NCBI RefSeq assembly: GCF_001975725.1
Contig: NZ_CP019434.1
Span: 2,775,322-2,807,321, forward strand
Reading direction: 5' to 3'
DNA: 32,000 nt
Source: Acidihalobacter ferrooxydans
GTDB taxonomy: Bacteria; Pseudomonadota; Gammaproteobacteria; DSM-5130; Acidihalobacteraceae
Positions 184 to 6,026 of this stretch are shown one piece after another. The notes beneath the pieces were generated by a model. It was not told the DNA's origin. It saw only the letters and a program-made list of their open reading frames with translations, and made no database searches. Made by a program: the position numbers and the translations under genes. Each line of letters starts with the position of its first letter. The stretch's first letter is position 1.

Positions 184-239
184 CTGGCGTAGGGTGTCAT
201 CAACTCAACCCGTCCCGTGACCGTAGTGCATCAACAGCT

Positions 240-264
240 ACTCATAGTCTGTCGCCTTATAGTC
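240..264 (+). promoter_or_regulatory. Tandem C-box-like operators upstream of the HTH-nuclease fusion
   Basis: ACTCATAGTctgtcgccTTATAGTC: two ATAGTC-containing boxes, 43 nt upstream of ATG 308, resembling the tandem operators of C-protein-regulated R-M systems. Confidence 0.6.
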
Positions 265-307
265 GTCATTTGTAGACAATCTCAGCCTGATTAGTTAGGG
301 CTTGAGC

Positions 308-1330
308 ATGGTCAGAAAATCGAGCGACTCCCTCCGCGCTATATTAGCTGAGAACATCAAGACTTTTCGTAGGGAAAAGGGTTTTTCCCAAGAAGAACTA
401 GCCGAGCGATGCGGCTTGCACCGCACGTACATAGGCTCAGTTGAACGACACGAAAGAAATGTCACACTCAGCACACTTGAGGTTTTGGCCTCAACTTTGG
501 GCGTGATAGTTCCCGAGTTGCTTACCGAGCGCGAAAGCCCATCGAATAACGAAAAAATGGGAAAACCTGTAGTGAGCATCTCGGAAAAGGAAATTAGCGA
601 AATTGTTGAGCCGCTACGTCGCCTTACTCCGGCTCAACAGGCTTGGGTCAAGTCCGCTATTCGTGCGTTCGGGACGGCTTGCCAATTCAACCGTGCCCCT
701 GACTCCGATGTGGTAACGGATGCTGTCCTTGCATCCCTTGGTGATCGCTTATTGAGCCACCACGCTGGGAGCCGTCAGGCACTGAGCAAGGATCGTTTTG
801 AGTTTGCGTTTGAGGCTGCCCTAAACGCCTCTGGCATTACGGCCAAGCTTGTGAAAAGCCGGACGAACCGGGGTCACGACATTACCATTCGTGGAATTCC
901 GGTCAGCCTCAAAACAGAAGCCGCGGCCAATATCAAGGACGAATCGATCCACGTCAGCAAGTGGATGGAGCTTGGCCGGGGTGAATGGAAGTTGCCTCTG
1001 CTGCGGGATTTGTTCCTTGAGCACATGCAAAGCTACGACCGCATTTTTACACTCCGACGCTTGAAAGATGCCGGCGCCAAAACACGCTACGAGCTCGTCG
1101 AGATCCCCAAAGAGCTGCTGCTCGAAGCGGCGAATTGCGAACTGGAGGTTTGTTCCAGCAGCAAACAGAATCCGCAGCCCGGCTACGGCTACGTCAAGGA
1201 TGCAGATGGACAACTCAAGTACTCGCTGTACTTCGATGGGGGTACAGAGCGCAAACTCCAGATCAAACACCTGCGAAAAGACCTCTGCAAGGTCCATGCA
1301 ACTTGGATCTTTGGCTCAACGCCCGCGTAA
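308..1330 (+). CDS. Putative type II restriction endonuclease with N-terminal XRE/C-protein-like helix-turn-helix (C-R fusion)
   Basis: N-terminus NIKTFRREKGFSQEELAERCGLHRTYIGSVERHERNVTLSTLEVLASTLGV matches the XRE/C-protein HTH pattern. The remaining ~260 aa is a separate domain, and the gene converges on a DNA methyltransferase. ATG at 308 is preferred over TTG at 302. Nuclease assignment is by context, not by a recognised catalytic motif. Confidence 0.72.
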   Translation: MVRKSSDSLRAILAENIKTFRREKGFSQEELAERCGLHRTYIGSVERHERNVTLSTLEVLASTLGVIVPELLTERESPSNNEKMGKPVVSISEKEISEIVEPLRRLTPAQQAWVKSAIRAFGTACQFNRAPDSDVVTDAVLASLGDRLLSHHAGSRQALSKDRFEFAFEAALNASGITAKLVKSRTNRGHDITIRGIPVSLKTEAAANIKDESIHVSKWMELGRGEWKLPLLRDLFLEHMQSYDRIFTLRRLKDAGAKTRYELVEIPKELLLEAANCELEVCSSSKQNPQPGYGYVKDADGQLKYSLYFDGGTERKLQIKHLRKDLCKVHATWIFGSTPA

Positions 1331-2209
1331 CAACCGCTCACGCGCTAGTTCGGCATACTCCGCGCTTAGCTCGATCCCGACGCAATCCCTGCCCAACTCA
1401 TTGCAGACAACGCCGGTAGTTCCTGACCCGAAAAACGGGTCGAGGACACGGCCATTCTTGCTTGAACCTGCTTCTACGCACATGCGAACAAGAGCCTTGG
1501 GATAGACGGCAAAGTGACTGCCAGGGTATGGCTCTGTATTGATGTTCCATACCGTGCGCCGGTTTTTCGACTTCTGCCTCGGGTTTGTCGCTGGCTCCAT
1601 GATTGCCTGCCAGTCGTAGTAATACTTCTCTGACTTGGAGAACAAGAAAACGTATTCATGAGCGCGAGTCGGACGATCTTTCACGCTCTCCGGCTGACAG
1701 TTGGGCTTGTTCCAAATGATATCCGTTCGCAGGTACCAACCATCCGCTTGTAGGGCAAAAGCCAGCCTCCATGGAACTCCAATCAAATCCTTGGGCTTCA
1801 GTCCTTCGGGCGTAGGAGCCCGGTAGTCCATCGCGCGGCCTTTATTCTTTGCGTCCGCATCGCGCCAAGTCCGGCCGCCCGATGTGTAGCTGTCACCGAT
1901 GTTCAGCCAAAGTGTGCCTTCGTCAGATAGTGTGCGCCGCACCTCACGAAACAAGCGCACTAGATCAGCAATATAATCATCGACAGTGGGTTCTGCACCG
2001 ATCTGACCTTGGACTCCGTAATCCCGTAGTCCCCAATATGGGGGGGAAGTTACAATGCAGTCGAAATGCCCATCAGGCATCCGCGACAGAAGCTGGCGAG
2101 CATCGCCTACGAGCAATTCGCAGCGATTCGCCGTTCCTTCAGCCAGTTGAGCGCCCAACGCTTTACCACCGGTATCAAATAGGTCGAGTATTTGTGTTGT
2201 TTCATTCAT
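1316..2209 (-). CDS. Site-specific DNA methyltransferase, beta-class, probably N4-cytosine (or N6-adenine)
   Basis: Motif IV TSPPYWGLRDYG lies N-terminal and the SAM-binding motif DPFFGSGTTGVVCNELGRDCVGIEL lies C-terminal, which is the beta-class order. The ORF track starts at 2245, but MNETTQ at 2209 is the likelier start. Confidence 0.92.
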   Translation of the reverse strand: MNETTQILDLFDTGGKALGAQLAEGTANRCELLVGDARQLLSRMPDGHFDCIVTSPPYWGLRDYGVQGQIGAEPTVDDYIADLVRLFREVRRTLSDEGTLWLNIGDSYTSGGRTWRDADAKNKGRAMDYRAPTPEGLKPKDLIGVPWRLAFALQADGWYLRTDIIWNKPNCQPESVKDRPTRAHEYVFLFSKSEKYYYDWQAIMEPATNPRQKSKNRRTVWNINTEPYPGSHFAVYPKALVRMCVEAGSSKNGRVLDPFFGSGTTGVVCNELGRDCVGIELSAEYAELARERLLRGR

Positions 2210-2270: not shown

Positions 2271-2303
2271 ACTTATAGTATTCATCACCTACCCCTCTGT
2301 CAA
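2271..2303 (-). promoter_or_regulatory. Methyltransferase promoter overlapped by a single C-box-like operator
   Basis: On the minus strand: TTGACA (2303-2298), 17-nt spacer, TACTAT (2280-2275). ACTTATAGT at 2271-2279 overlaps the -10 and matches the upstream nuclease box (GCTACTTATAGT vs GCTACTCATAGT). Confidence 0.6.
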
Positions 2304-2446
2304 GGCCGGGCATTTAGCTCAGAGCATCAACCTGAACACCCGACTCAAACGTTATGTGATCACACCATAAAATTAAGTTTATTTAATTTTAAAATCCGTT
2401 TAATATTTGCCTGTGGGTCGTCCACGTCAACTTAAAGGTGAAGCAA

Positions 2447-2776
2447 ATGGATGTTTTTGGAAGCAAAACGCAGAAGCTACTAGCAGACGCTCAGGGCTTA
2501 TTGCAACAGGCGCAACATGAAATGAGCAAAGACATTGAAAAGCTGAAGGCTAAGCAATCAGCGACAGATGCGAGGCTGGCAAGGTTGGAAAATCAGCAAG
2601 ACAATTCTGCACGAGAGATTGGCCGATTGCAGCAATCGCTAGACGATATTCGAGACAGTGCGATTCGGGGAGAAATAGCAAGCGGGCAGAAAACAAAAGA
2701 CGTTGCTGATAAGTTCAATCTTACGCCAGCAAGAGTGTCTCAGATAGCTCCCCGCAGAAAGTACAATAACGGATAA
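2447..2776 (+). CDS. Small coiled-coil protein with C-terminal sigma-70 region-4-like HTH
   Basis: Central heptad-like charged region. C-terminus KTKDVADKFNLTPARVSQI resembles an HTH. ATG 2447 has the upstream SD-like sequence AAAGGTGA; the ORF track uses GTG 2438. Confidence 0.5.
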   Translation: MDVFGSKTQKLLADAQGLLQQAQHEMSKDIEKLKAKQSATDARLARLENQQDNSAREIGRLQQSLDDIRDSAIRGEIASGQKTKDVADKFNLTPARVSQIAPRRKYNNG

Positions 2777-2782
2777 ATGCAT

Positions 2783-2851
2783 ATAACAATGCCATAAAAT
2801 CGGCCCCCAAAAAGCTACGCTGCGCTTTGCTTTTCAGGTCCGGTTATGGCA
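2783..2851 (+). repeat. attC-like imperfect hairpin, copy B
   Basis: TGCCATAA (2790-2797) pairs with TTATGGCA (2844-2851), extended by CGGCCC against GGTCCG. Central GCTACGCT. It immediately follows the stop of the small ORF and shares the CCGGTTAYGGC end with copy A. Confidence 0.35.
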
Positions 2852-2939
2852 AAAGAGTGATACCTAAAAATCTGACTCAGAGTAAAAATGTCATTTCAAA
2901 CACCAATTGAACAACAGGGGACAGACCACGGTTTCATGA

Positions 2940-3115
2940 CGATCTAGGAGTCTGTCGGATTTAACGCTAATCGGCTGCAAATCCCCGGATAGCGATCAAC
3001 TCCGCTTATTGAACTCGTTAAATAGACCCACTATTCGCCTCGTTCGATAAACGCATTTGATTCGCCCCCGCTGATTTTCGCGACGATCCGTCAAATCCGA
3101 CAGACTCCTAGATCG
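2940..3115. mobile_element. MITE-like non-coding element with 23-bp perfect terminal inverted repeats
   Basis: CGATCTAGGAGTCTGTCGGATTT (2940-2962) is the exact reverse complement of AAATCCGACAGACTCCTAGATCG (3093-3115). 176 bp in total, with no coding ORF inside. Confidence 0.6.
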
Positions 3116-3765: not shown

Positions 3766-5115
3766 TCAGTCGAGTCCATACGCCAATCGCAACAAAGTCA
3801 ATGGATGTTCGGGCGGGCGTTCGTCCTTGAGGCCGTTTTCGATCTGATGGCCGGCCATTGGGCAATCGCTGGAGTAGTGATCGCTCTCGGCCTTTTGCAC
3901 ACGCGTGACCACCGGACGACAGATTTTCATCGACGTTTCGTGGAACTCGCTCTTTACCGCATAGGTTCCGTCATGCCCGGAGCAGCGTTCGATCACGTCT
4001 AGCGTCGTATCCGGAATCAGTTCCAGCAGTTCGCGCGTTTTCAAACCCATGTTCTGCACGCGCAGATGGCACGCCGCGTGATAGGCGATTTTGCCCAGCG
4101 AATGCTTGAATTCTGTATTGAGAAGCCCTTCTTTCTGACGCAGCATCAGGTACTCGAACGGGTCGAAAATATGCGCCTTGACCTTGGCCACATCGGGGTC
4201 GTCCGGGAACATCAACGGCAGTTCCTGCTTGAACATTAGCACGCAGGAAGGTACCGGCCCGACAATATCCCAGCCTGCGTCGATCATGCGCGCGAGCACC
4301 GGAATATTCGCCTCCTTGGCTCGCGCCACGGCTTCCAGATCGCCCAATTCCAGCTTGGGCATGCCGCAACACCGCTCCTTCTCGGCCAGCGTCATCTCGA
4401 TACCGTTATGCTCGAACACCTTGAACAGGTCCTCGATCAAATGCGGCTCGTTGTAATTGCCATAACAGGTCGCAAACACCGCCACACGCCCCTGCGTGCG
4501 CCCGGCCGACACGGCCTGAGTCACCGCGCTGTGGTGGTCGGCAACGCGCTGGCGCCCGGTTTCGCTGTGATATTGCGGCAGCAGTGCGCCGGCATGGATG
4601 CCCATGGTCTTGTCCAACTGCTCGCGAAACGCCGGATTACGGTTTGCAGCGTTCATCGCCTCGGCAACCACCGGGATACCGGCCAGCCGACCGATGGCGT
4701 CGGTGGAACTGATCAGGCGGTCACGCTTACTCGTGCGGCCCTCGCGATATTTCACCGCCTTGGCACGCAGCATCAGATGCGGAAAATCGACATTCCATTC
4801 GTGCGGCGGCGTGTATGGGCACTTGGTCATGTAACACAGATCGCACAGATAGCATTGATCGATCACCTTCCAGTAGTCGTCCTTGGCGACGCCATCCACC
4901 TCCAGCGTGGAGGATTCGTCGACCAGATCGAACAGCGTCGGAAATGCGTTACAGAGACTGACGCAGCGTCGGCACCCGTGGCAGATTTCATAAACCCGCT
5001 CCAATTCGGCGAACAGGGCTTCATGGTCGTAGAACGCCTCGGTCTCCCATGCCAAAGGATGCCGGGTCGGGGCTTCAAGATTGCCTTCTTTTTTGCTGTC
5101 GGTCGGGGCTGACAT
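3766..5115 (-). CDS. GlpC/heterodisulfide-reductase-like (Fe-S)-binding protein with CCG domains
   Basis: Ferredoxin-like motifs CHGCRRCVSLCNAFP and CYLCDLCYMTKCP, plus CCG-domain motifs ERCCGMPKLE and ERCSGHDG. Confidence 0.85.
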   Translation of the reverse strand: MSAPTDSKKEGNLEAPTRHPLAWETEAFYDHEALFAELERVYEICHGCRRCVSLCNAFPTLFDLVDESSTLEVDGVAKDDYWKVIDQCYLCDLCYMTKCPYTPPHEWNVDFPHLMLRAKAVKYREGRTSKRDRLISSTDAIGRLAGIPVVAEAMNAANRNPAFREQLDKTMGIHAGALLPQYHSETGRQRVADHHSAVTQAVSAGRTQGRVAVFATCYGNYNEPHLIEDLFKVFEHNGIEMTLAEKERCCGMPKLELGDLEAVARAKEANIPVLARMIDAGWDIVGPVPSCVLMFKQELPLMFPDDPDVAKVKAHIFDPFEYLMLRQKEGLLNTEFKHSLGKIAYHAACHLRVQNMGLKTRELLELIPDTTLDVIERCSGHDGTYAVKSEFHETSMKICRPVVTRVQKAESDHYSSDCPMAGHQIENGLKDERPPEHPLTLLRLAYGLD

Positions 5116-5208
5116 CCTGTCCCTCCTCAGTCGGGCGCGCGCATCGCGTACGTCGGCTTTATCGTTCTGCCAGAAATTCGCTACTGTAAAACAAGAATCT
5201 CGCTACGG

Positions 5209-5244
5209 TAAAAATTCAAGGAGCCGCCCACAGCGGCTCCTTGA
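5209..5244 (-). terminator. Rho-independent terminator downstream of rubrerythrin
   Basis: Perfect 12-bp stem TCAAGGAGCCGC/GCGGCTCCTTGA (5216-5227/5233-5244) with a 5-nt loop, followed on the minus strand by ATTTTTACC. Confidence 0.85.
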
Positions 5245-5251
5245 CAACGAC

Positions 5252-5671
5252 TCAGGCGACCATGCTGTCCAAAGCCTTCTGGAAGCGGTTGGCATGCGAA
5301 CGTTCGGCCTTGGCCAGCGTTTCGAACCAATCCGCGATTTCGTCAAAACCTTCCTCGCGCGCGGTCTTGGCCATGCCCGGGTACATATCGGTGTACTCAT
5401 GCGTCTCGCCAGCGATGGCGGTCTTCAGGTTGGCTTCGGTGCTGCCGAAAGGCAAACCGGTGGCCGGATCGCCACAATCTTCGAGATACTCCAGATGGCC
5501 GTGCGCATGGCCCGTTTCGCCTTCCGCAGTGGACCGAAACACGGCGGAGATATCGTTCTGGCCTTCGACATCGGCCTTGGCTGCAAAGTACAGATAACGC
5601 CGGTTGGCTTGCGACTCACCGGAAAACGCCTCCTTCAGGCTTTGCTCGGTCTTGCTACCCTTGAGTTCCAC
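5252..5671 (-). CDS. Rubrerythrin family protein (diiron domain only, no C-terminal rubredoxin)
   Basis: [27 protein letters not shown]...[15 protein letters not shown]...[21 protein letters not shown]...AERSHANRF. The ORF track start at 5686 is TTG; GTG at 5671 has GGAGG eight nt upstream. Confidence 0.9.
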
Positions 5672-5734
5672 AGTGCTATCCTCCAAGTTCTGAACAATTG
5701 ACGAGCGACCGCGATTGCGGCCACAAGCTTTAAC

Positions 5735-5749
5735 TTAGACCCAGTCTAA
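5735..5749. promoter_or_regulatory. Palindromic operator candidate upstream of rubrerythrin
   Basis: TTAGACccaGTCTAA: perfect 6-bp arms with a 3-nt centre, 63 nt upstream of the preferred GTG start. Confidence 0.4.
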
Positions 5750-6026
5750 AATTTCGTCAAGCACGCACCTTTCGACGCGCCACTCACATTTTCAACCCGG
5801 ATATTTCACAGATTTCCATTGATCTCGCGGGGCTCTTGTTACTCAAGGGATATTTCTTCAATCGGCCGTTGTCACCGATATGCTGCCCCTTCCGAGATTC
5901 CTTGTGAAATCACTATCCGGCGCGATAGCGACACAAAGCCATGAAACATCCGGGTTGGAATTGCTCAAGATCACACTCTCAGGTAGTGTTCCCGGTTTGA
6001 TTTTGGCGCACGCCCTGATTACCTCA

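Follow-up and report, generated by a model that had tools for sequence, protein, structure and literature searches.

The analysed stretch of DNA (hereafter, the window) comprises 32,000 nt of Acidihalobacter ferrooxydans (GCF_001975725.1, NZ_CP019434.1, positions 2,775,322–2,807,321, forward strand). It contains a restriction-modification (RM) cassette in which one open reading frame encoding both a controller (C) domain and a restriction endonuclease (R, REase) domain, denoted CR, converges on a methyltransferase gene (M). Comparison at the DNA level revealed homology with all relatives only within positions ~228–2344, and hence the unit is a 2.1-kb cassette whose edges are its own two promoters. 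The genomic neighbourhood of this cassette varies from host to host and, judging by the collected relatives, the 2.1-kb C/R/M cassette is common and widely distributed. The following features were identified.

308–1330, plus strand: CR fusion ORF of 340 aa, from ATG 308 to TAA 1330, controller helix-turn-helix (HTH) plus SmaI-family restriction endonuclease
332–532, plus strand: controller (C-protein) HTH domain, aa 9–75, recognition helix HRTYIG; PADLOC Control_protein, 1.3e-23
533–571, plus strand: former C-protein tail, now the linker, aa 76–88; holds the fusing mutation; pLDDT <50 for aa 77–88
572–1330, plus strand: SmaI-family REase domain, aa 89–340, starting in frame at the ancestral R start GTG 572–574
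1316–2209, minus strand: partner DNA methyltransferase, 297 aa, ATG at 2209, SPPY motif, N4-C/N6-A class
239–264, plus strand: predicted double C-box operator, TACT-CAT-AGTC-TGTC-GCCT-TAT-AGTC; O_L 239–249, spacer TGTC 250–253, O_R 254–264
275–280, plus strand: probable -10 element (GACAAT) of the C-dependent CR promoter, placed from its conserved position and PvuII-like geometry
2275–2303, minus strand: methylase promoter, TTGACA 2303–2298, 17 nt, TACTAT 2280–2275; promoter scan 10/12
2270–2280, no strand assigned: O_M, single palindromic C-box-like operator TACTTATAGTA, predicted, overlapping the methylase -10 TACTAT

The CR frame is open throughout, with no internal stop, and both of the domains that it encodes, C and REase, are complete. 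An alternative start at TTG 302 is possible; every homologue begins with MVRKSS. The preliminary description of this DNA had proposed that a C-protein/XRE HTH and a nuclease are joined in one ORF. This is borne out by the Pfam matches to HTH_3 (aa 17–66, E 3.7e-12) and PF17411 (E 2.8e-67), with which PADLOC agrees. Also as it had claimed, the cassette contains no separate C gene, and the partner methyltransferase does converge on the fused gene, the 3' ends of the two ORFs overlapping by 15 nt.

The methyltransferase ORF matches N6_N4 (PF01555, E 3.9e-55) and PADLOC MTase_II (5.9e-135), and its product is 92.6% identical to the methylase of locus L012. Its limits were set at 1316–2209 because GGAG lies 8 nt upstream of ATG 2209 and the methylases of the relatives are 297 aa long. 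Terminator-like hairpins occur at 1438–1453 (plus strand) and 1193–1173 (minus strand), ~110–125 nt beyond the stop of each gene, each within the coding sequence of the other, convergent gene. Since the nuclease and methylase genes overlap by 15 nt with no terminator between them, transcription may collide or yield antisense RNA.

The cassette is flanked by ordinary host genes encoding a DUF3501 protein, a CCG-domain Fe-S protein and rubrerythrin. Just beyond it, at positions 2300–3100, the DNA is AT-rich (44–45% GC vs ~59% for the whole window). There, a plus-strand ORF at 2438–2776 encodes a coiled-coil-like protein of 112 aa with a short HTH-like C-terminus (KTKDVADKFNLTPARVSQI), for which all Pfam and NCBIfam matches were sub-threshold. 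A tRNA search across the 32-kb window, looking for integration signals near the cassette, returned zero tRNAs. The plus strand of the window (1–32000) has a strong excess of C (10342 C vs 8555 G), and the cumulative GC skew drops steadily across its first 8 kb.

The HTH sequence in the N-terminal part of the CR protein, GLHRTYIGSVER, is of the XRE type with an HRTY recognition helix. By sequence, its matches among solved structures are NHTF (3vk0, the best), C.BclI (2b5a), C.Esp1396I (3clc), and C.AhdI (1y7y), and a Foldseek search with the AlphaFold model of the CR protein returned the same set of controllers. The best match, covering CR aa 7–73 (nt 326–526) at 50–54% identity, is annotated as a Neisseria "hypothetical transcription factor NHTF"; although not a named C protein, NHTF may itself be an RM controller. 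Locus L004 has a free 88-aa C protein, to which the first 84 residues of the window protein show 92% identity. The AlphaFold2 model of the 340-aa protein (mean pLDDT 88.4, pTM 0.69) consists of two confident domains with a low-confidence joint. Disorder is predicted for the linker, about 12 aa long, and would leave room for both CR domains to dimerise.

The nuclease, which the preliminary description had left without a type and with its specificity open, can be named. It is, by profile, a full-length member of the SmaI family: PF17411 (SmaI) is matched by aa 110–335 over profile positions 12–240 of 240, with a score of 227.1 bits against a curated cut-off of 27.3, and PADLOC REase_II covers aa 91–335 (3e-89). 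This part of the protein is 93% identical to P0021, a free 252-aa R protein. The target expected from membership in the SmaI family is CCCGGG, with a blunt cut (CCC^GGG), and protection by the partner N4/N6-class methyltransferase is likewise to be expected from family membership. The window contains 5 CCCGGG sites, compared to 20.6 expected from base composition and 7.3 from a Markov model, and GGGCCC is equally rare; the site is thus not clearly avoided, and the counts are uninformative as a test of specificity.

Every residue that is invariant across 67 family members is present in the window protein. Among these, E165, E169, D191, K202, and E204 are candidate active-site residues. In the model of the R part alone (pLDDT 90.2), the elements around D191/K202 follow the order alpha-beta-beta-beta-alpha-beta. 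This predicted order around D191 and S200-L-K202-T-E204, which are invariant, together with a preceding helix that carries E165 and E169, would be compatible with a PD-(D/E)XK core. A structure search with the nuclease domain did not confirm a fold class, PD-(D/E)XK included.

Upstream of CR, positions 239–264 fit the PvuII-group C-box pattern GACT-N3-AGTC-N4-GACT-N3-AGTC at 14 of the 16 core positions. The wild-type PvuII operator, which has been dissected by experiment, is TACT-CAT-AGTC-TGTA-GATT-CAA-AGTC, and its TGTA-type spacer pairs with C proteins that have an HRTY recognition helix (PMC2175313). A scan of the 32-kb window for the full double C-box pattern gave a single match (240–264), with 0.00 expected, and almost every relative, fused or split, has kept the double box upstream. 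Downstream of it, the -10-like position reads TGACAAT, GGACAAT, or AGACAAT in the relatives. The implied -35 of the CR promoter (252–257, TCGCCT) is poor and lies under O_R, and the transcript leader is probably ~20 nt long.

On the other side of the cassette, the methylase promoter is close to consensus and is conserved in relatives, and TACTTATAGTA at 2270–2280 is a perfect palindrome enclosing its -10 element. The preliminary description had proposed binding assays at 230–270 and 2260–2290. Both stretches do contain related operator-like boxes: the 12-mer GCTACTNATAGT, common to O_L and O_M, is found exactly at 237 and 2268, with no other exact match in the window, in a search at a one-mismatch setting for which 0.09 matches were expected. 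All C-bearing relatives share the block TGAATACTATAAGTAGCA in nearly invariant form; the C-less relatives lack it.

The origin of the fusion can be read from a DNA alignment of the junction in the window and in four split relatives (L086, L013, L019, and L004). In the common form of the cassette, an 88-aa C gene overlaps a 252-aa R gene at GTGA, which contains the C stop TGA and the R start GTG. The junction of the split loci, ATGGGAAAACTTGAGTGAGC, has in addition an R-frame TGA directly before the GTG. A typical example is L004, with C at 4738–5004, R at 5001–5759, a convergent M, and the same 15-nt overlap of the gene tails. The window junction, ATGGGAAAACCTGTAGTGAGC, differs from the ancestral ...CTTG^AGTGA... 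by a T inserted at nt 570 and a T>C substitution at 567. The inserted T interrupts the first TGA and moves C to the frame of R, so that both stops are gone. The old R start at GTG 572–574 is still in frame and, like the GGGAAAA upstream of it, is unchanged from the split relatives.

Of the relatives found, L086, which encodes P0021, is the nearest. It is split and has 92.5% nucleotide identity to the window over 188–2344, indicating that the fusion in the window is young. By this alignment, the window locus is a one-nucleotide derivative of an ordinary split C/R/M cassette. The preliminary description had singled it out as the strongest candidate for an individually uncharacterised system; it is instead a common split cassette with one inserted T and an unfused nearest relative. 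The window allele is a singleton in the collections searched, and its nearest relatives are all unfused. The exact 340-aa protein is not on record, an exact 22-mer of the junction had 0 matches in the metagenome collection, and all 16 matches of a degenerate 20-mer of the junction in that collection were unrelated.

Two other ideas were considered and rejected. Programmed -1 frameshifting as a source of fused product in split cassettes, at the in-frame G_GGA_AAA shortly upstream of the junction, is contradicted by the TGA that immediately precedes the GTG start in the R frame of the split relatives. Phase variation at the junction was discarded since three +1 insertions occurred at three different, non-repetitive positions.

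Fusions are frequent in the SmaI-type family. A search of 5.8 billion proteins yielded 1831 relatives, and the architectures were counted in the best 120 clusters. Of these, 36 are fused (HTH and SmaI; 311–342 aa), and 84 are SmaI-only proteins of 247–258 aa that are 75–93% identical to the C-terminal part of the window protein. In species-representative genomes (single-protein scan), 5 of the 28 C-bearing SmaI-type loci are fused, namely, those from Rhodoferax, Competibacteraceae, Aalborgicola, and two from Sulfuritalea. The fused proteins have at least 15 junction structures, with deletions producing proteins of 311–329 aa and frameshifts producing proteins of 336–342 aa. Three 340-aa forms result from three different +1 insertions, in the window, in P0002/L088, and in P0004/L089; in the latter two, the R-frame TGA is also altered, to TGG or TGT. 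SmaI-type fusions arose many times through different small indels at the GTGA gene overlap.

The tree of the nuclease domain is in line with this. In a neighbour-joining tree, a rough one that takes no account of recombination, fused and split tips are intermingled, and Fitch parsimony on the 156 tips requires at least 20 state changes. One clade of 321-aa proteins has lost the entire junction, R start included, while the methylase is intact; in this clade, the nuclease can be made solely as a fusion. Its dN/dS is 0.08–0.11 in both domains. More generally, dN/dS is 0.05–0.12 in both domains and is alike for fused–fused, fused–split, and split–split pairs, the comparisons of the window with split relatives giving 0.05–0.10. 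By these ratios, some fused lineages without an internal start are under purifying selection (dN/dS about 0.1). The frequency of the fusions, their independent origins, the 321-aa clade without an internal start, and the purifying selection, all seen within the SmaI-type family, are indirect support for the view that such fusions can work.

Several other variants were observed in the family. A third class of SmaI-type cassettes (L024, L029, L030, L032, L037–L039, and L044) has no recognisable C gene and no O_M box at the methylase promoter, paralleling the C-less class reported for PvuII relatives. In Candidatus Aalborgicola (L009:2746–3966), a fused allele of the 321-aa type has lost the upstream double C-box and kept the O_M box; its homology to the window begins only at window nt 290, and its frame is open for 406 codons upstream. 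In Sphingopyxis sp. PET50 (L041:3001–5531), the match to R breaks off at about 150 codons, and that to the methylase restarts ~1.1 kb later than expected, which suggests that the nuclease gene was disrupted by an insertion or rearrangement. Finally, fused proteins, including P0002, P0014, P0022, and P0062, are publicly named "transcriptional regulator with XRE-family HTH domain" or "helix-turn-helix domain-containing protein", so that RM surveys can miss the nuclease.

In our opinion, the best explanation of the locus, with a probability of roughly 0.7, is a C-controlled Type IIP RM cassette of the SmaI family whose controller and nuclease genes are now one gene. The support from purifying selection and recurrence is family-wide (36 of the clusters fused, with no fewer than 15 types of junction), the window allele itself having been seen once only. 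No free C protein can be made from this locus, and hence any C function must come from the fusion; we infer that the fused protein regulates its own synthesis. Under the proposed scheme, the methylase promoter (TTGACA-17-TACTAT) would fire first, and basal transcription of CR would supply some fusion protein. Its HTH domains, as dimers, would bind O_L (239–249) and activate the CR promoter. At higher levels of the fusion, O_R (254–264, over the -35) would become occupied, capping nuclease synthesis, and occupation of O_M (2270–2280, over the methylase -10) would turn the methylase down. The C-terminal domains would dimerise and cut unmethylated target DNA. With GTG 572 and the upstream GGGAAAA intact, some free 252-aa REase may also be made.

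This last point leads to the alternative that survives best, although we judge it unlikely. The insertion may be a young frameshift, near-neutral or mildly harmful, with the 252-aa protein translated from GTG 572 being the nuclease that matters; the chimera would then be a by-product with weakened or lost control, and CR expression would be basal and unregulated. The event is recent, given a split nearest relative at 92.5% nucleotide identity; the GTG and the GGGAAAA before it are the same as in split relatives; the allele is unique in the collections searched; and a study of PvuII reports that R is translated independently of C there (PMC2997769). Against this, many fusions of the family persist under purifying selection, some of them lacking an internal start; transcription is activated by a fused C domain among the PvuII relatives; and both operators in the window are intact.

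A sequencing or assembly error at nt 570, the true locus being an ordinary split C + R + M cassette, would have the attraction that a single base decides the matter and no second copy of the allele was found. It is, nevertheless, very improbable: the insertion lies outside any homopolymer run (CCTG-T-AGTG) and is accompanied by a nearby substitution; few positions at the junction can give a one-step fusion; and real fusions, being common in the family, account for about one-fifth of C-bearing loci, far above any plausible rate of errors at the junction. Hardly credible, too, is a decaying cassette that has lost restriction through the fusion and whose methylase is turning into an orphan: RM systems that are inactive and can be recognised only from their sequence are common (PMC3850674), but here neither domain nor the methylase has stops or frameshifts, the residues invariant in the 67 family members are all kept, both promoters and operators are intact, and dN/dS against split relatives is 0.05–0.10.

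Taking the cassette as a C-controlled one with a single CR gene, we can ask what such fusions mean. Within the literature searched, C-REase fusions have been characterised in one nuclease family only, that of PvuII. The SmaI-type fusions constitute a natural series for asking how fusion affects the timing of restriction vs methylation, and the window and L086, at 92.5% nucleotide identity, are a matched fused/split pair. The general understanding of RM systems is unchanged by them. A more far-reaching possibility, doubtful as it stands, is that fusion of C and R, rather than being an accident now and then, has been selected again and again in SmaI-type cassettes as another way of arranging control, and that it has about 15–20 independent origins. 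If so, having regulator and nuclease in one chain would hold them at a 1:1 ratio, the strong dimer interface of the nuclease would pre-assemble the weak C dimer or compete with it, and the lag that precedes restriction in a new host would change. In the window, this transition would then be at its first step, a single base having been inserted and the old start codon retained.

The closest architectural parallels are the C-REase fusions of the PvuII family, i.e., CR.NsoJS138I, Mru1279I, Asp90I, Gsp7428I, and Oni7112I (Liang and Blumenthal, 2013; PMC3850674), among which CR.NsoJS138I is active both as an REase and as a C protein (PMC3850674). Liang and Blumenthal also raised the issue of whether both domains can dimerise in fusions with a short linker (PMC3850674). 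As in the window, these proteins have an N-terminal C-protein HTH in frame with a Type IIP REase and PvuII-type C-boxes upstream; as in the SmaI-type family, split, fused, and C-less classes occur among close relatives, and fusion apparently happened more than once. The nuclease is different, SmaI (PF17411) in the window and PvuII in the PvuII-family fusions. The window further differs in that M and CR are convergent and an extra operator lies on the methylase promoter. A further difference is that the fusion in the window goes back to the insertion of a single base and retains the old R start, and the independent fusions comprise at least 15 junction types in the SmaI-type family vs 5 proteins in the PvuII family. 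SmaI-type fusions and their many origins are undescribed in the literature searched, where a 2025 review cites, for C-REase fusions, only the 2013 PvuII-family paper; REBASE may list them.

By its nuclease, the window resembles the SmaI system of Serratia marcescens, which is listed with C.SmaI as C-dependent (PMC2632904, PMC2175313). C.SmaI is in the set with experimentally identified binding sites. The two systems have in common the REase family (by profile), an N4/N6-class methylase, and control by a C protein. In the SmaI system, however, C and R are separate proteins, whereas in the window they are fused.

By its operators, the window resembles the C.PvuII circuit (Mruk et al., 2007; PMC2175313), with which it shares the HRTY helix and operators of the form TACT-CAT-AGTC-TGTn-Gnnn-nAn-AGTC. 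The left box and the spacer core are identical in both, O_R lies over the -35 in both, and the expected logic of both is activation followed by repression. The differences are the spacer, TGTC in the window vs TGTA in PvuII, the probable ~20-nt leader of the CR transcript in the window, and the tethering of the window regulator to a nuclease.

By its layout, the window recalls Esp1396I, for which Bogdanova et al. (2009; PMC2691842) describe convergent CR and M units and a C protein that binds both promoters; the convergent units and a C-box over the core methylase promoter are common to both systems. PDB entry 3ufd for Esp1396I refers to the "highest affinity operator site OM". Esp1396I differs from the window in having an operator of another sequence family, another REase, and separate C and R proteins. 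Thus, by the features compared, the window locus belongs at once to the SmaI REase family, to the C-controlled group with PvuII operators, and to the natural C-REase fusions.
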